Below the pieces are notes generated by a model. The model did no database searches. It was not told where the DNA came from and worked only from the letters and a program-made list of their open reading frames with translations. A program made the position numbers and the translations under genes. From a virus (Duplodnaviria > Heunggongvirae > Uroviricota > Caudoviricetes), in the IMG/VR virus record IMGVR_UViG_2534681774_000027, positions 1 to 5,594 of that record: 5,594 nucleotides of DNA; one strand, given 5' to 3'. Below are positions 1 through 5,594 of this stretch, in pieces (positions within the stretch are counted from its first letter, which is position 1; each line of letters opens with the position of its first letter).

Positions 1-444
1 AGAAGTCCGGGGATGTACAGCAGAACAGCGTCTGGCGGCAAGAAAGCCAGAGCTGCGCCACTGATGCAGTCACTGTATGACTGGATACAGACTCAGATGA
101 AAACACTGTCGCGTCACTCGGATACGGCAAAAGCGTTCGCATACCTGCTGAAACAGTGGGATGGCCTGAACGTGTACTGCAGTAATGGCTGGGTGGAAAT
201 CGACAACAACATCGCAGAGAACGCCTTACGGGGAGTGGCCGTAGGCCGGAAAAACTGGCTGTTCGCGGGTTCCGACAGCGGTGGCGAACATGCGGCGGTG
301 TTGTACTCGCTGATCGGCACATGCCGTCTGAACAATGTGGAACCAGAAAAATGGCTGCGTTACGTCATTGAGCATATCCAGGATTGGCCGGCAAACCGGG
401 TACGCGATCTGTTGCCCTGGAAAGTTGATCTGACCTCTCAGTAA
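1..444 (+). CDS. IS66-family transposase, C-terminal fragment (5' end lies outside the window)
   Basis: Reading frame is open from base 1 with no upstream stop; stop at 442-444. Translation (…[51 protein letters not shown]…LLPWKV) matches the conserved C-terminus of IS66-family transposases as I remember it. Only about 147 codons are present, so the gene is 5'-truncated by the window edge. Confidence 0.8.
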
Positions 445-474
445 ATATCAATACGGTTCTGGCGAGCCGCTTAC
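1..474 (+). mobile_element. Right-hand part of an IS66-family insertion sequence; terminus inferred near 474
   Basis: Transposase C-terminus ends at 444. Bases 461-474 (ggcgagccgcttac) read inward from the end as GTAAGCGGCTCGCC, which resembles the GTAAGCG-type terminal inverted repeat I recall for IS66-family elements. The exact boundary is inferred, not verified against the left end. Confidence 0.45.
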
Positions 475-530
475 CATCGATCTGTTATGCCTATTACTTA
501 TGAGTGGTGTTACCCTCATTTGTGAGGGTG

Positions 531-567
531 ACAAAAAGAAAACCCGCAGTTTTTACGCTGCGGGTTT
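531..567 (-). terminator. Rho-independent terminator downstream of the zinc-ribbon/TM2 gene
   Basis: Perfect 10-bp stem aaacccgcag (540-549) / ctgcgggttt (558-567) with an 8-nt loop. On the minus strand it is followed by TCTTTTTGT (complement of 531-539). It lies about 25 nt past the stop of the 593-889 gene. Confidence 0.55.
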
Positions 568-592
568 GTCATTCTGATTCGCCCACTAGGCA

Positions 593-889
593 TTAGCCAT
601 ATTTGCGGGCAAAGTCTTCATCAGAGGTGCATAGATAGATAAAAAACTCAATAAATGCCACGATTGCCGGAATGAATGTCCAGCAAAAAATAAGGTAAAG
701 GAATCCTTGCCCCACTTTACCTAAATAAAATTTGTGTGCACCAAGACCACCTAAAAAGAAAGCCAGTAGTGCGGCTGTCATTCTGCTTTTTGAACTTGCT
801 GTTCTTTGAGGTGCTCCACAATTGGGGCAGGATGTGGCATCTTTATGTATTTCCTTGCCGCATCCGCGACAAAATACCATTTCACTCAT
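593..889 (-). CDS. Small membrane protein with N-terminal zinc ribbon and C-terminal TM2 domain (98 aa), function unknown
   Basis: ORF with an AGGAA Shine-Dalgarno 6 nt upstream of the ATG at 889. N-terminus carries CxxC…CxxC (CRGCGKEI…CPNCG); C-terminus has the TM2 signature LLAFFLGGLGAHKFYLGKVGQGFLYL and two hydrophobic helices. Composition is visibly AT-rich compared with the phage genes. Confidence 0.8.
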   Translation of the reverse strand: MSEMVFCRGCGKEIHKDATSCPNCGAPQRTASSKSRMTAALLAFFLGGLGAHKFYLGKVGQGFLYLIFCWTFIPAIVAFIEFFIYLCTSDEDFARKYG

Positions 890-902
890 AAAGAGTTCCT
901 TT

Positions 903-960
903 CAAATTTAAATAAGCGTTAAACCCACCACTCTTACTGGTGGGCCTCAATTTAAATTTG
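903..960. repeat. Nested palindrome: 11-bp perfect inverted repeat flanking a 7-bp-stem hairpin
   Basis: caaatttaaat (903-913) and atttaaatttg (950-960) are exact reverse complements. Between them, cccacca (924-930) / tggtggg (938-944) form a stem with a 7-nt loop. On the minus strand the hairpin is followed by a U-rich stretch (TTTAACGCTTATTTAAATTT), so it could terminate the hok-like transcript and/or act as an operator for the TM2 gene. Confidence 0.35.
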
Positions 961-993
961 GGTGCCACTTCGACCATACCCTGGCAACCGATT

Positions 994-1015
994 GACGGGG
1001 GATTGCTCCCCCGTC
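994..1015 (-). other. GC-rich stem-loop just 3' of the hok-like ORF (possible mRNA 3' structure)
   Basis: gacggggga (994-1002) / tcccccgtc (1007-1015) form a perfect 9-bp stem with a 4-nt loop, beginning about 10 nt past the hok-like stop codon on the minus strand. Hok mRNAs are known to carry stable 3' structures. Confidence 0.3.
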
Positions 1016-1024
1016 GCGGTTTCC

Positions 1025-1165
1025 TTACTGCTTACACTGTAAGAACGCCGCAAACTCCGCTCCCCAGAAGCTCATCCGTATTTCGCACAGCGAACCATGC
1101 AGCATCCAGATGATGAGGATTGCCGTCACGCAGAACGTGATGGCCGTAAGCGATTTTTGCGACAT
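1025..1165 (-). CDS. hok: Hok/Gef-family type I toxin (46 aa), absent from the supplied ORF track
   Basis: Hand translation of the minus strand gives MSQKSLTAITFCVTAILIIWMLHGSLCEIRMSFWGAEFAAFLQCKQ with stop TAA at 1027-1025. AAGGAG Shine-Dalgarno lies 8 nt upstream of the ATG (1165-1163). One hydrophobic helix followed by the SLCEIR motif and a C-terminal AAFLxCK segment, closely resembling Hok-family proteins as I recall them (e.g. …DSLCELHIK…AAFLACK…). Confidence 0.7.
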   Translation of the reverse strand: MSQKSLTAITFCVTAILIIWMLHGSLCEIRMSFWGAEFAAFLQCKQ

Positions 1166-1295
1166 AGCACTTGCTCCTTTTCCGGAGAGGCGCTAACCTT
1201 TCACTTGTCAAGGTAATGCGGTTAGGGCCTCGGTTAAACAGAAATGTTTTCCGGGGCCTTTCCACATCCGGCCTTCGGGTATTCCCTCCGACCAT
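1032..1295 (-). CDS. mok: mok-like overlapping reading frame (translational coupling frame for hok); start uncertain
   Basis: ORF in a different frame that overlaps the whole hok-like ORF and stops 7 nt before the hok stop, which is the arrangement known for mok/hok. The ATG at 1295 has no clear Shine-Dalgarno; an in-frame GTG a few codons downstream is preceded by GAAGG and may be the true start. The protein has no recognisable domain, as expected for Mok. Confidence 0.35.
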   Translation of the reverse strand: MVGGNTRRPDVERPRKTFLFNRGPNRITLTSERLAPLRKRSKCYVAKIAYGHHVLRDGNPHHLDAAWFAVRNTDELLGSGVCGVLTV

Positions 1296-1355
1296 CAGCC
1301 GAAAGGCACCCGCGCGTAATCTATCGCTTTTTTGTTACTCCGGCAATTCTGCCTG

Positions 1356-1616
1356 TTAATTCTGAGATAAAGGCAAGCTCATCTGATTGTTTCCCCTGTG
1401 TGAAGCTGGCAGCTCATGCCACGGGATACCTTCTGAAGAGTGAACGCCGGAGGCATGTTTCGATGTGAATTTATGGAAAGCTTCCAGTGTTGAGAAGCAT
1501 ACGCCGCATTCCAGATTGTTACACTGGTAATACTTTTGCCGCACGGTGTTTGAATCATTTTCCGGACGACTGGTGCGGATACGGGCAGATGCGCCACAAA
1601 GCGGACAACGGAACAT
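1356..1616 (-). CDS. ogr: Ogr/Delta-family zinc-finger late-gene transcriptional activator
   Basis: MFRCPLCGASARIRTSR…YYQCNNLECGVCF carries the CX2C-X22-CX4C zinc finger and aligns with P2 Ogr as I remember it (MFHCPLCQHAAHARTSR…). GGAGG Shine-Dalgarno 5 nt upstream of the ATG. It sits immediately downstream of gpD on the same strand, as in P2. At 86 aa it is longer than the 72-aa P2 Ogr. Confidence 0.85.
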   Translation of the reverse strand: MFRCPLCGASARIRTSRPENDSNTVRQKYYQCNNLECGVCFSTLEAFHKFTSKHASGVHSSEGIPWHELPASHRGNNQMSLPLSQN

Positions 1617-1644
1617 AGCGACCTCCCTTAACGTGGTGCTGTCG

Positions 1645-2772
1645 CTATTCTAAGTTGCTCACTCTGTTTCCGCTATCCATTCCGGGATTTTTTGCTTCAA
1701 GCTCAAGCTGAGTGGTAAAGCCGCTGTTATCAATGGTGTGCCCGGCTTTTGCAATAATCCAGTCCTGATTATCAATCTCGCTTTTAAATCCTGTTACCGT
1801 GCCATGCATTTCGGGGTAGAGTTCTGCGCGTCCACGTGCCAGCGTGATGGAGAATGATGCGGCTCCGCGTTGTAGTTGTTGCCACTTTGCCGCCGCTGCG
1901 CGTCTTGCTGCCTGCTCGTTCTGATAAGTCTTGCGTAACACAAACACATTGCCTTCCGCGCCTTCCATATAATCACCTTCACGGCTGCTGCTTTTCTCTT
2001 TTTTCGGTTTTGGCGGTTTGCGGCGTTTCACGCTGACTTTTTTCTTTTTCCCGTAATTAAGATCAAGCCAGTAAGCGCGTACCCCCGTATACGCCTCGCG
2101 GTCAGCAATGCGGAACTGATGGCGATCGCCGCTGCTGCGTGTGATGGCGAACGATGGCAACGGCTGGCCCTGTGCGTTCACGCCACCGCCGGGCATGATG
2201 AATAACAGATTACCGCTTTTTACCGTGGTGATTGCGCCCAGCATTTCCGCCATGCGCGTAAGGAAGGACATGTCGCTTTCTTCGGTCTGGTCGGCGTGGT
2301 CGATTTCGATATGCATCAGCATTTCGCTGATTTGCGGTTTCAGACCGTACCGATGAGCGATGGCGGATACCACACGCTCAACGGTCACATCATGCCAGGA
2401 CACCTCACGTTTAACGTTAAATTCATCCCGAAAATCTGCGCTTCTGGCTGAAACAGTCAGCCTGTCCGGCGGTCCTTCGTGTGCGATTTCATCGACAATG
2501 TAAGAGCCTTTTTCTGTCAGCGGTTCGCCTTTCCAGCCAATGAGAACCGTCAGGCGCGCGCCCCGTGGCGGTAGCTGCAACTGACCATCCGCATCATCCA
2601 GCGTGATGGTGAGCTGGTCCGCCTCAAATCCCCGGTTGTCGGTCAGTGACAGGCTCATCAGGCGCTCTGCCACGCCTGACAGCGTTTTACCCTCCGCGAG
2701 AATATCAAAAATCCGGCATTTTTCACGGGGGTCTGTGCTCTGACTGAGCAATTGCATGGTGGTGTCGGTCAT
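1645..2772 (-). CDS. D: P2 gpD-like tail protein (late control gene D family)
   Basis: Translation contains LSLTDNRGFEADQLTITLDDADGQL…, the lysine-rich KKKKVSVKRRKPPKPKKEK segment, and a C-terminus …GFTTQLELE…, all matching P2 gpD as I recall it. Start placed at the ATG at 2772 because of a strong GGAGGG Shine-Dalgarno 5 nt upstream; the track's ATG at 2793 is in frame but lacks one. Confidence 0.88.
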   Translation of the reverse strand: MTDTTMQLLSQSTDPREKCRIFDILAEGKTLSGVAERLMSLSLTDNRGFEADQLTITLDDADGQLQLPPRGARLTVLIGWKGEPLTEKGSYIVDEIAHEGPPDRLTVSARSADFRDEFNVKREVSWHDVTVERVVSAIAHRYGLKPQISEMLMHIEIDHADQTEESDMSFLTRMAEMLGAITTVKSGNLLFIMPGGGVNAQGQPLPSFAITRSSGDRHQFRIADREAYTGVRAYWLDLNYGKKKKVSVKRRKPPKPKKEKSSSREGDYMEGAEGNVFVLRKTYQNEQAARRAAAAKWQQLQRGAASFSITLARGRAELYPEMHGTVTGFKSEIDNQDWIIAKAGHTIDNSGFTTQLELEAKNPGMDSGNRVSNLE

Positions 2773-2928
2773 CTTTCCCTCCCTGTGCGGCATGGTCGCA
2801 TGTGCGTGCGGAGGGGGTTACTGCTTTTTGTTGTCGCCGGGTCGGGAGAACGGCGCAGGGGTGAGATTACGCGCGTGGTGGGTGATGATTGTTGCCGAAT
2901 CATTTAACGGATACAAGGGGCTGAAGCT
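2773..2928. promoter_or_regulatory. Divergent intergenic region between gpD (minus) and FI (plus); presumed late promoter(s) and possible rearrangement junction
   Basis: 156 bp of non-coding sequence between two divergently oriented late genes. Contains an imperfect Ogr-box-like element TGT-N12-AGA (2832-2849; consensus is TGT-N12-ACA) and a Shine-Dalgarno for FI. No -10/-35 elements could be assigned with confidence. Confidence 0.35.
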
Positions 2929-4113
2929 ATGAGTGAAACTCGTTTTCATGGTGCCCGTGTTACGGAAAATACCGACCTGGTAACAGCGATTAACGATGTT
3001 GATTCCAGCGTTATCGGTATCGTGGCAACGGCGGATGATGCGGACGCGAAGCTGTTCCCGCTGAACAAGCCCACACTGCTGACCCGCGTCAATGACGTGC
3101 TGGGAAAATGCGGAACAACGGGGACGCTTTATCGTGCGCTTAAGGCCATCGCAGACCAGGTGAGCACAAAGGTGATCGTCGTTCGCGTGGCTGAACACAA
3201 AGAAGAAGACGGAAAGACGCAGGATCAACTGGTTATCGGTGGTTCTGAGGATGACGGCAGCTATACGGGGATGTATGCGCTGCTTGTTGCAGAGCAGGAT
3301 GAAAGCATCGGATACCGTCCGCGTATTCTGGCCGCGCCGGAGCTGGACACGGAGGCGGTGACAAAATCCCTGTGCGTGATTGCGGGTAAACTGCGCGCGT
3401 TTGTGTATGCCTCATGTCACGGCTGTAACACGATGGCTGAGGCGATTACCTACCGCCAGAAATTCAACGAACGTGAGGTGATGCTCTTATGGCCGGACTT
3501 CATCGCCTACAACCCGAAAAGTGGCAAAAACGAAACGTTCCCCGCGCCTGCCTATGCGTGCGGCCTTCGTGCGTACATTGACCATGAGCAGGGATGGCAC
3601 AAATCACTGTCCAACGTTCCGGTTAAAAATGTGCTGGGGATGTCGAGGCATGTGTTCTGGTCGTTGCAGGCCGAAGACAGCGATGCCAACAGCCTCAACA
3701 ACAAAGAAATCACGACCATTATTCGTCGCAACGGGTTCCGCTTCTGGGGCAACCGCACACCGGAAACGAACGCCTACATCTTTGAGGTGTATACCCGAAC
3801 CGCACAGGTGCTGGCTGATTCAATTGCAGAAGCGCAGTTTGAAACCATCGACAGTCCACTGACGCCTGCGAACGTGAAGGATGTTATCAGTGCCATCAGG
3901 GCAAAACTGGATTCACTGGTTACTGCCGGGAAACTGATTGGCGCGGAGTGCTGGTATGACGTGGTGGATAACAGCACCATGGATTTACGTCAGGGACGTG
4001 TGCGTATTCGCTATAAATATACGCCCGTTCCGCCACTGGAAGACATGGAGCTTTACCAGACGTTTACTGATGAATACTTTGAACCCGCATTTGCGGTGCT
4101 GGGAGGTGCCTGA
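2929..4113 (+). CDS. FI: Contractile tail sheath protein (P2 gpFI family), 394 aa
   Basis: Length and translation (…VIGIVATADDADAKLFPLNKPTLLTRVNDVL…GTLYRALKAIADQ…) match P2 FI sheath protein (about 396 aa) as I remember it. The stop overlaps the FII start in a TGATG junction, indicating translational coupling. Confidence 0.93.
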   Translation: MSETRFHGARVTENTDLVTAINDVDSSVIGIVATADDADAKLFPLNKPTLLTRVNDVLGKCGTTGTLYRALKAIADQVSTKVIVVRVAEHKEEDGKTQDQLVIGGSEDDGSYTGMYALLVAEQDESIGYRPRILAAPELDTEAVTKSLCVIAGKLRAFVYASCHGCNTMAEAITYRQKFNEREVMLLWPDFIAYNPKSGKNETFPAPAYACGLRAYIDHEQGWHKSLSNVPVKNVLGMSRHVFWSLQAEDSDANSLNNKEITTIIRRNGFRFWGNRTPETNAYIFEVYTRTAQVLADSIAEAQFETIDSPLTPANVKDVISAIRAKLDSLVTAGKLIGAECWYDVVDNSTMDLRQGRVRIRYKYTPVPPLEDMELYQTFTDEYFEPAFAVLGGA

Positions 4114-4625
4114 TGGCTGTGCCAAAACATCTTCGCTTTTTTACGCTGTTTGTGGATGGTGAAAACGAAGTGGGTAAGGTGACGTCCGTCACTCTGCCCA
4201 AACTGACGCGCAAAACCGACAGCTACCGGGGGGGCGGCATGATGGGTGCGGTAAGTATTGATCTCGGTCTGGACGACTCCGCGCTTGATGCGAGCTTTGT
4301 CATGGGGGGCGCAGTTCGTGAGCTGTTCCTTAAGTATGGCGGCACGATTGACGGCACGCTGCTGCGTTTTGCGGGTGAATACTACACCGATGCAGAAAGC
4401 GACCTGTATGAAGTCGAAATGCGCGGACGTGTGACGGAAATTGATATGTGGGAAGCCAAACAGGGCGAAGCCACATCACACACTTACGCCATTAAAAACA
4501 CCTACTACAAGCTGAGTGTTAACGATCGCCCGTTGTGGGAGATTGACCTGCTGAACTTCATTTACCGGAAGGACGGCAAGGACATTGTGCCCGATCGCAT
4601 CCGTTCCGCGCTCGGGCTTGGCTGA
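4113..4625 (+). CDS. FII: Tail tube protein (P2 gpFII family), 170 aa
   Basis: Translation (…VTLPKLTRKTDSYRGGGMMGAVSIDLGLDD…LRFAGEY…EAKQGEATSHTY…) matches P2 FII (about 172 aa) as I remember it. Position directly after the sheath gene is canonical. Confidence 0.93.
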   Translation: MAVPKHLRFFTLFVDGENEVGKVTSVTLPKLTRKTDSYRGGGMMGAVSIDLGLDDSALDASFVMGGAVRELFLKYGGTIDGTLLRFAGEYYTDAESDLYEVEMRGRVTEIDMWEAKQGEATSHTYAIKNTYYKLSVNDRPLWEIDLLNFIYRKDGKDIVPDRIRSALGLG

Positions 4626-4679
4626 TAAGTAATATGCAGGCGGCGCAGTGCGTCGCCTCTGACTGAAAGGAGTTTCCTG

Positions 4680-5045
4680 ATGAAAGAGACGAAAAACATC
4701 GATACCGAAAACACGGTCGTTGCTGACACTGTGAAAGAAACCAGTGAGCGTGGCATAAAACTTACCCAACCAATTGAGCGAGGCGGCGAAAAAATCACGT
4801 ATGTGGAGATCACCGGAGCTATTGAGCAGGCTGGATCTCTGCGAGATTTGTCGCTGTCTGATGTGCTGAATCTGAAAGCGGAATCTATGTTTACGCTGCT
4901 GTCACGCGTGACATCACCGCGACTGGATGAAGTGACGATCAAAAAAATGGCATCCCGTGACTTTATTCAGTTATGTGTGGTTGCCGTAAATTTTTTGAGC
5001 GGTGCGGACTCTGGCGGGAAGAACGAACAGGCGACGGAAGCCTGA
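4680..5045 (+). CDS. E: Tail assembly chaperone gpE (zero-frame product)
   Basis: Strong AAAGGAG Shine-Dalgarno upstream of the ATG. Acidic small protein located between the tube and tape-measure genes, and it contains the P2-type slippery heptamer T_TTT_TTG in frame. Confidence 0.8.
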   Translation: MKETKNIDTENTVVADTVKETSERGIKLTQPIERGGEKITYVEITGAIEQAGSLRDLSLSDVLNLKAESMFTLLSRVTSPRLDEVTIKKMASRDFIQLCVVAVNFLSGADSGGKNEQATEA

Positions 5046-5209
5046 TCACGGTTGTGTGCTTTGAGCACATAGAAGACTTTGTGGCAGATATTGCCGTTAT
5101 TTTTAACTGGTCGCCCGCCGAAATCTTCATGATGACGCCCGGCGAAGTGGTTAGCTGGCGTGAGCGGGCGGCACTTCGCAGCGGGAATGCAGACAATGAA
5201 GACTCTTGA
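4680..5209 (+). CDS. E+E': gpE+E' fusion produced by programmed -1 ribosomal frameshift
   Basis: Slippery heptamer T_TTT_TTG at 4991-4997 in the E frame. The -1 frame is open from there to the TGA at 5207-5209 (…FFERCGLWREERTGDGSLITVV…), overlapping the start of T by 14 nt. This is the organisation described for P2 E/E' and is analogous to lambda G/GT. Confidence 0.7.
4991..4997 (+). other. Programmed -1 frameshift slippery site (TTTTTTG)
   Basis: Heptamer X_XXY_YYZ = T_TTT_TTG positioned in the gpE frame as AAT TTT TTG; the -1 frame continues open for about 70 codons. Confidence 0.7.
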
Positions 5210-5594
5210 TATCCGGGTCGCTTTCAGCGCCGTTGACAGGCTGACCCGGCCTGCCGAAAACGCCCGCCGCCTGATGGGGCAGTTTGGTGACTCCATCCAG
5301 CGAACGCAGGGGGCGATCAAAAATCTCGAGCGTCAGGCGCGTTCATTTGAGCGCGCCCGCGACGCTGTCAGTAAAGCGGATGCGGGTATCGTGAAAGCAC
5401 GACGCCAGCTTAACGCCCTTAATCAGTTACAACGCACGGGTACAGTGCTCAGCGAAAAGCAACAAAAGCTGATGCAGCAGTTAAGCACCCGGCTTGAACG
5501 CCTGAATGAATCGCGCACACGGGAAATTCAGAAAATGCGGGAGCTTGGCGGAGAGCTGAAACGCCACGGCATTTCCCTGACAGGCCGCGATAGC
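5196..5594 (+). CDS. T: Tail tape-measure protein gpT, N-terminal part (3' end lies outside the window)
   Basis: ATG at 5196 opens a frame with no stop to the window end (133 codons): MKTLDIRVAFSAVDRLTRPAENARRLMGQFGDSIQRTQGAIKNLERQAR…. This is alpha-helical and Q/R/E/L-rich, typical of tape-measure N-termini, and sits in the canonical position after E/E'. It is absent from the ORF track because it has no stop in the window. Confidence 0.8.
   Translation, partial: MKTLDIRVAFSAVDRLTRPAENARRLMGQFGDSIQRTQGAIKNLERQARSFERARDAVSKADAGIVKARRQLNALNQLQRTGTVLSEKQQKLMQQLSTRLERLNESRTREIQKMRELGGELKRHGISLTGRDS

Follow-up and report, generated by a model that had tools for sequence, protein, structure and literature searches.

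A probable hok/sok-family type I toxin-antitoxin cassette in the cargo of a P88-like Escherichia coli prophage

The hok gene downstream of ogr

The window, by which we mean the whole stretch of 5,594 nucleotides analysed here, consists of the end of an IS66-family element (1-474), which abuts the cargo end of the prophage at 474/475, and of a P88-like prophage (475-5594). Directly after ogr, as the first-pass annotation had it, the minus strand of this P2-like prophage carries a short gene for a Hok/Gef family toxin. The hok/sok locus is a textbook type I toxin-antitoxin system, and the gene described here, together with the elements that surround it, very probably forms a cis-encoded cassette of this family, ~390 bp in length and part of the prophage cargo. 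The gene and its translation signal are as follows.

1025-1165 (stop codon included), minus strand: hok, a 46-aa Hok/Gef family toxin gene, supported by the ORF listing, Pfam, NCBIfam and PHROG and identical to RefSeq WP_000078916.1
1174-1177, minus strand: Shine-Dalgarno sequence GGAG of hok, 8 nt before the ATG (1165-1163) and predicted to be closed by an upstream CUCUCC

The product, MSQKSLTAITFCVTAILIIWMLHGSLCEIRMSFWGAEFAAFLQCKQ, displays the hallmarks that had been ascribed to it from the letters alone: a hydrophobic N-terminal segment spanning residues ~5-22 (Kyte-Doolittle, 15-aa window means up to 2.55), the motif SLCEIR at residues 25-30 and a C-terminal AAFLQCK at residues 39-45. Profile searches agree with the proposed family, the Pfam model HOK_GEF (PF01848) scoring 29.9 bits against a gathering score of 22 (E 4.1e-07), with peptide residues 7-44 aligned on profile positions 5-42 of 42, and PHROG 251 matching with an E value of 1.3e-22. 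Seven residues exceed 80% conservation among 1264 Hok peptides in a published logo (bioRxiv 10.1101/2025.08.07.668861). Alignment on this logo, with the second cysteine included, places M1 on logo position 1 and C12, T14, L26, C27, E28, E37 and C44 on positions 16, 18, 30, 31, 32, 41 and 48, at a constant offset of 4. The same work found 42 of 45 diverse Hok homologues to be toxic. Among NCBIfam models the best match is the HokA equivalog (NF007290), whose 34 bits fall so far under its cut-off of 89 that the peptide is not HokA; the Hok subfamily model (NF007279) gives 21.6 bits against a cut-off of 73, and K-12 HokA itself shares 43% identity. Judged by these comparisons, the peptide is a member of the Hok family that corresponds neither to HokA nor to any other named K-12 orthologue.

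Relatives were collected with a degenerate DNA pattern for WGAEFAAF, which retrieved more than 100 real loci in IMG/VR. When applied to GTDB species representatives, the pattern returned mostly chance matches (in Amycolatopsis and others) and only three of the expected enterobacterial loci, two from Salmonella and one from E. albertii. The resulting comparative set comprises 61 distinct cassette variants from IMG/VR and enterobacterial loci, all 61 with an intact Hok ORF of 46-47 aa. Measured against the window sequence, dN/dS of Hok lies between 0 and 0.28 over the 61 variants; variant L035 differs by nine synonymous and no non-synonymous changes, and variable sites are distributed over codon positions 1, 2 and 3 as 22, 11 and 32. 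This pattern points to strong purifying selection on the Hok ORF. An ORF this short would be passed over by a six-frame caller with the usual length cut-off, and might on that account be dismissed as a frame left open by chance between genes. Such a reading has next to no likelihood and is already refuted by the Pfam score above threshold, the PHROG match (E about 1e-22) and the conservation of the ORF with a third-position substitution pattern in the 61 variants; RefSeq, moreover, annotates the gene.

The locus is in fact less novel than the first-pass annotation supposed when it called it unannotated, as RefSeq WP_000078916.1, PHROG 251 and the records of P88-like phages already call the gene Hok/Gef and name the exact peptide. 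The gene is thus known and ordinary, and no discovery. Positions 880-1360 of the window are nucleotide-identical in at least 15 E. coli chromosomes, where the gene also lies between ogr and a TM2-domain gene; the RefSeq gene order there is TM2-domain protein, 'Hok/Gef family protein' (WP_000078916.1), ogr/Delta zinc-finger protein and phage late control D, with raiA adjoining. Related copies occur in 1549 of 5426 complete E. coli genomes, with up to 7 matches per genome. Cassette copies 94-97% identical are found in the phages P88 (SF19_gp52), P884B11, 500465-2, Chuche and PhiR44_2, the P88-like phages belonging to Xuanwuvirus (Peduoviridae) and bearing the annotation 'MokW-like host killing / hok/gef family protein', and a copy ~80% identical is present in Stx-converting lambdoid phages. 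The clade, with its peptide of 46 aa and the tail WGAEFAAFLQCKQ, occurs in prophages of Escherichia and Salmonella, the P88-like and Stx-lambdoid types among them. Plasmids rarely carry it (35 of 72,556 records), and classical plasmid hok loci show no DNA or tblastn similarity to the cassette at E 1e-3. By blastn, the cassette is also present in a few loci whose titles name other taxa.

Public records give the peptide only; the Sok RNA, the mRNA boundaries and the status of mok are absent from them. A published census (2026) counts 32,532 hok loci, mostly annotated before and four-fold enriched in prophages, and explicitly left Mok unanalysed (bioRxiv 10.1101/2025.08.07.668861).

Predicted promoters and RNA elements, and extent of the cassette

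The type I reading proposed for the locus is strengthened by the presence, around the gene, of a hok-type leader and a predicted antisense Sok unit. The elements are listed below.

1341-1346, minus strand: -35 element TTGCCG of the hok promoter, read from the sequence, starting 10 nt after the ogr stop codon (1356-1358)
1318-1323, minus strand: -10 element TAGATT of the hok promoter, with a 17-nt spacer to the -35 element and 6 nt before G1311
1152-1311, minus strand: hok mRNA leader, a full-length match (1-157) to the 157-nt Rfam model RF01794 'sok'
1297-1311, minus strand: tac box GGGUGCCUUUCGGCU and predicted 5' end of the mRNA, paired with fbi in the minimum free energy (MFE) fold; the Rfam model begins at 1311
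1206-1222, minus strand: part of the hok leader that is hypervariable and rich in indels; the Sok 5' tail is complementary to it
1171-1199, plus strand: Sok promoter, with -35 TTGCTC (1171-1176), a 17-nt spacer and -10 TAACCT (1194-1199), overlapping the hok Shine-Dalgarno region on the opposite strand
1206-1262, plus strand: predicted Sok antisense RNA of ~57 nt, with a single-stranded 5' tail, a hairpin (1224-1259) and a UUU tail; both ends are predictions
994-1015, minus strand: 3'-UTR hairpin, 9 nt past the hok stop codon (993-1016 in the terminator scan)
960-975, minus strand: fbi box GGUCGAAGUGGCACCC, the pairing partner of tac, with 960 as the last position of the conserved cassette
918-944, minus strand: terminator CCCACCA-GUAAGAG-UGGUGGG followed by UUUAACGCUUAUUU, a 10-bp terminal hairpin in the MFE fold, outside the conserved cassette

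A consensus scan for sigma-70 sites over 850-1420 at a threshold of 9/12 found none, and both promoters were placed by homology and conservation, with consensus scores of 8/12 or less; the hok -35/-10 pair scores 8/12. The hok -10 element is TAGATT, TAAATT or TAGAAT in nearly all variants despite their differing upstream flanks, and the copy in Stx phages also shows TTGCC and a 17-nt spacer before its -10, in a flank that is otherwise unrelated. The hok promoter would be a weak, constitutive-type one, with a predicted mRNA of ~395 nt from G1311. The Sok promoter-like site is present in all 61 variants, as TTGnnn-17/18-TAACCT in 60 and with TAAGCT in one, at a place relative to the hok Shine-Dalgarno sequence that we take to correspond to that of the R1 Sok promoter. 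The predicted Sok RNA folds with -24.9 kcal/mol (z -4.0).

The Rfam match to the leader scores 46.2 bits (E 3.1e-08), under the gathering score of 59. Since the match is to the hok strand and stops at the start region of hok, the model in effect describes the hok leader, including the complement of Sok. Two other Rfam matches in the window, to MicC and BSnc120 at 493-650, were set aside as chance matches on a terminator hairpin (E 0.3-0.4, far under gathering).

In the MFE fold of a 397-nt transcript running from 1311 to 915 (z -6.6), the first 15 nt pair with 960-975. This tac-fbi pairing is retained across 59 variants, with 94.5% of cells paired against 34-51% when the partner is slid. The helix shows no compensatory pairs in these 59 variants, all changes being one-sided and wobble-compatible; double-sided covariation is absent because both sides are almost invariant. 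A ucb-like box (1253-1265) is the alternative partner of tac in the consensus fold, in which columns 1-14 pair with 47-59 in 57-59 of 59 sequences, an invariant stem without covariation support that is also adopted by truncated and nascent folds. The ucb-like box varies at one column only, which does not track the hypervariable stretch. Within the cassette, column entropy peaks in the latter (0.95 at A2 columns 97-108).

In full-length, truncated and nascent folds alike, the hok Shine-Dalgarno sequence has an unpaired probability of 0.00-0.08, and the start codon region is predicted to pair with the codons for EFAAF. The anti-Shine-Dalgarno hairpin and the helix between the start codon and this downstream box are the two least variable stretches of the cassette, even at synonymous sites.

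Downstream of hok, the GC-rich hairpin that had been noticed after the stop codon is present and reads, on the minus strand, GACGGGGGA-GCAA-UCCCCCGUC. Compensatory changes are seen at two of its pairs, one being GC in 38 and AU in 21 sequences and the other AU in 41, CG in 11, GC in 5 and UG in 2. It is, however, an internal 3'-UTR stem and not the end of the unit; beyond it come the fbi box and the terminator. The interval first assigned to the locus, 1025-1340, is slightly too narrow: the conserved cassette covers 960-1346 and is followed by the terminator hairpin (924-944), for a full module of ~918-1346. The terminator at 918-944 is context-specific, P88 carrying a different one at that position. 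Across P88-like, Stx-lambdoid and other contexts, homology runs from the hok promoter to just after fbi (960), whatever the flanks, and because it starts and stops at these points regardless of its surroundings, the cassette behaves as a mobile module.

The 87-aa frame and comparison with named hok systems

The first-pass annotation had also assigned the part of mok to an 87-aa frame overlapping hok.

1032-1295, minus strand: 87-aa overlapping frame of the ORF listing, which we regard as open by chance in this variant and not as a conserved gene

The frame exists and overlaps hok as described, with hok one base downstream of it, presumably the same offset as that between mok and hok in R1. Its role as mok is not sustained by the comparison. 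The ATG lies 17 nt into the predicted transcript, within the tac stem and without a Shine-Dalgarno sequence, and the product has no family match in Pfam, NCBIfam or PHROGs. In 36 of the 61 variants no ORF with an ATG, GTG or TTG start reads into the hok Shine-Dalgarno sequence in any frame; the other 25 do have an upstream ORF, whose starts are inconsistent (-130, -103, -100, -76, -46). In most relatives the 87-aa frame itself is cut by stops or indels or has no start, and in many it is open only from -16, -28, -43 or -55, with ends at +80 or +131. The variable sites show no coding constraint in this frame. We therefore reject it as a gene; on the evidence of these alignments, and with ATG, GTG and TTG starts considered, mok appears not to be conserved in the clade. 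A short leader ORF, GUG-A[AU]A-GGU-UAG, which ends just before the anti-Shine-Dalgarno sequence, was considered as a substitute for mok and rejected as a general feature, as Stx-type variants have GUA in place of its start and no Shine-Dalgarno sequence lies upstream.

The cassette shares most of its architecture with R1 hok/sok: the Hok peptide family, an mRNA of ~400 nt, the tac-fbi pairing with an alternative tac/ucb stem, a Sok promoter that overlaps the hok Shine-Dalgarno region, a short Sok with a 5' tail and a hairpin, and an upstream CUCU box that closes the hok Shine-Dalgarno sequence (element definitions as in PMC9841398). It differs in the length of the peptide (46 aa here, 52 in R1) and in the absence of a conserved mok ORF from the clade of the window, the stretch that holds the mok start in R1 corresponding here to the most variable, indel-rich part of the cassette. 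Hok synthesis in R1 strictly requires mok to be translated as far as the hok Shine-Dalgarno sequence or beyond (PMC9841398). With K-12 hokA/mokA/sokA the locus shares both cysteines and the 3' flank GCACCCAAATTTA. The K-12 locus, however, is disrupted by IS150, and its mokA and sokA are listed as pseudogenes, whereas promoters and leader in the window are intact.

[quoted passage not shown] HokW, in contrast to the peptide described here, has 51 aa and starts with MKQQKAM, and the hokW leader begins with GGGTGCTTGAGGCTATC (primers in PMC8621323). None of the 153 fetched loci, many Stx-type copies among them, contains the hokW start sequence. Identity of the cassette with hokW of Sp5 was rejected on these differences in peptide and leader. 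The gene falls instead in a prophage-associated Hok cluster that is already known to public annotation pipelines.

Proposed mechanism, role and significance

The arrangement of the elements suggests a mechanism of the hok/sok type, in which we infer transcription, processing, RNase III decay and toxicity, along with every biological role. The promoter just after ogr would give the ~395-nt mRNA, whose 5' tac box would pair with the 3' fbi box or with the nearby ucb-like box and which would encode a 46-aa Hok that has both conserved cysteines and, at its N-terminus, a membrane helix. From the promoter over the hok Shine-Dalgarno region on the opposite strand, a Sok RNA of ~57 nt would be transcribed that is the complement of part of the leader. 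Following the R1 paradigm, the full-length mRNA would be stable but inert, locked by tac-fbi pairing, until slow 3' trimming takes off fbi and the mRNA refolds; unstable Sok would then bind the refolded mRNA and direct it to decay by RNase III. By the same paradigm, once Sok synthesis stops, whether because the prophage has been lost or excised, because an infecting phage has shut off transcription, or upon induction, Sok would disappear and Hok would be produced and depolarize the inner membrane.

Because the hok Shine-Dalgarno sequence is predicted to be closed in every fold, the locus could alternatively be translationally silent: a structurally intact relic in which no mok opens the closed site, native Hok is never made and the module hitch-hikes with prophages. 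The very low unpaired probability of the site in all three kinds of fold and the 36 variants whose leaders offer no ORF into it are consistent with such a state, as are the dependence of Hok synthesis on mok translation in R1 (PMC9841398), the disrupted or pseudogene condition of the K-12 relatives hokA, mokA and sokA, and earlier tests of chromosomal hokA, hokB and hokC, which gave no post-segregational killing (summarised in bioRxiv 10.1101/2025.08.07.668861). We nevertheless regard a silent locus as unlikely. It is weakened by the purifying selection on Hok, evident from the low dN/dS and from the exclusively synonymous differences to variant L035, and both promoters and the tac and fbi boxes are retained in all contexts. 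Furthermore, the start region and its complementary box are near-invariant, synonymous sites included, which implies regulated translation rather than none.

Two further alternatives accept a working toxin-antitoxin system and differ in what it is selected for. Hok might help the phage once it is induced, by hastening lysis and the release of progeny. This has been reported for hokW-sokW: after mitomycin C, and depending on RecA, sokW vanishes and HokW builds up, and deletion halves phage release (PMC8621323). In the window no terminator separates ogr from the cassette immediately downstream, so that late transcription could read into hok. HokW, however, is a different paralogue, with its 51 aa and a start, MKQQKAM..., absent from the 153 loci, and P2-type phages are generally not SOS-inducible; a selected function in lysis seems improbable to us. 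We would give no more weight to abortive infection or exclusion as the selected role, in which an invading phage would stop transcription, Sok would run out and Hok would be freed. The position of the cassette at the cargo end of the prophage, where other morons adjoin, the four-fold enrichment of hok in prophages (bioRxiv 10.1101/2025.08.07.668861) and the 42% reduction of T4 plating by R1 hok/sok on a high-copy plasmid (cited in PMC8621323) would suit such a function, but the same census found no enrichment of hok near defence systems, and the effect reported for R1 is small. For a functional hok/sok cassette, the reading we prefer, we consider addiction to the prophage or its retention the most likely role. 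Superinfecting phages or lysis may be affected in addition, and of all parts of our account the role is the weakest. Post-segregational killing and abortive infection, the roles first put forward for the locus, are reasonable guesses.

What the analysis adds to the records is of some use, namely the full anatomy of the cassette, with its promoters, tac and fbi boxes and Sok, which is missing from them. The sharp boundaries of the cassette show that a unit of ~390 bp moves between unrelated prophage types. Only two points are mildly new: the clade seems to be without a conserved mok, and the stretch complementary to the Sok 5' tail is hypervariable. We tentatively raise the possibility, which we hold to be somewhat less than even, that this prophage Hok clade has dispensed with mok, that translation of hok is gated by RNA structure only and that the variable Sok target acts as the determinant of specificity. 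If the clade is mok-free, Sok would work through decay of the mRNA or through blocking of a standby site; if the hypervariable target sets specificity, the up to 7 copies per genome would be kept from neutralising one another. The absence of mok, if confirmed, would mean that the translational-coupling model established for R1 is not general for the family, and would provide an abundant natural variant in which to study how Hok synthesis is unlocked.

Prophage setting of the hok cassette

Outside the hok cassette, a hok/sok-family type I toxin–antitoxin module, the window contains, among other features:

1-474: 3′ portion of a transposase gene of the IS66 family (Pfam DDE_Tnp_IS66 and IS66 C-terminal element)
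593-889, minus strand: protein of 98 aa that combines an N-terminal zinc ribbon with a TM2 domain (Pfam TM2, E 5.5e-19; PHROG 10292)
4113-4625: intact tail tube gene, 170 aa (Pfam Phage_tube, E 8e-45)

The terminal repeat of the IS66-family element, ...GCCGCTTAC, closes at 474. Among complete E. coli genomes, all that match the window do so over 475-5594 only, which places the element directly against the prophage's cargo end. In other strains, this same cargo end is occupied by com and a DNA methyltransferase, adjoining raiA. The TM2-domain protein, whose PHROG is listed as of unknown function, is a second small membrane-protein moron and lies just downstream of hok.

In the tail region, the tube gene is intact in the window, but in E. 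coli strain 89-3156, whose prophage is otherwise nearly identical, it is marked as frameshifted. Further along, the ORFs at 4680-5045 and 4973-5209 overlap (4973-5045), and a T-rich run that looks slippery, AAATTTTTTG, lies within the overlap at about 4988-4997. Genes that use the P2 E/E+E′ tail-chaperone frameshift are expected to be laid out in this way; the RefSeq annotation gives two separate genes at this overlap.

Limits and relatives of the cassette

Comparison of P88-like, Stx-lambdoid and other prophage contexts (L002, L003 and L034 among the fetched loci, and others) shows that cassette homology starts at the hok promoter (1346) and ends exactly after the fbi box (960), the element that pairs with the 5′ tac box, while the terminator differs, each context bringing its own. 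The cassette is therefore a module of about 390 bp that travels as one unit between prophages. The downstream flank carrying the TM2 gene is found with only 3 of the 61 distinct hok cassettes.

One IMG/VR locus, L094, holds a chimeric cassette, in which a 5′ leader belonging to another hok lineage (its 5′ end reads GGACACC...) precedes a coding region and fbi box of the window-type clade, so that three of the first seven tac–fbi pairs are mismatched. E. coli K-12 hokA (3449-3633 of fetched locus L154) has in common with the fbi box of the window and its flank the 3′ motif GCACCCAAATTTA, but in the coding regions its protein is only 43% identical to the window Hok. The hokA locus is cut by IS150, and its mokA and sokA are recorded as pseudogenes.

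Conserved and variable RNA elements

The hok start codon and the 9 nt that follow (AUGUCGCAAA; 1154-1165, minus strand) are complementary to UUUGCGGCGU at 1044-1056 on the same strand, which falls inside the hok codons for EFAAF. Across the 59 variants compared, hardly any change occurs in either stretch, synonymous positions included, a pattern that suggests a conserved helix that would occlude the start codon.

Variability within the cassette peaks in the stretch complementary to the 5′ tail of the predicted antisense RNA Sok (1206-1222; columns 97-108 of A2, the alignment of cassette variants), where indels of 1-2 nt are present and neighbouring elements are nearly invariant. This stretch may set the specificity of Sok where genomes hold several copies of the cassette.
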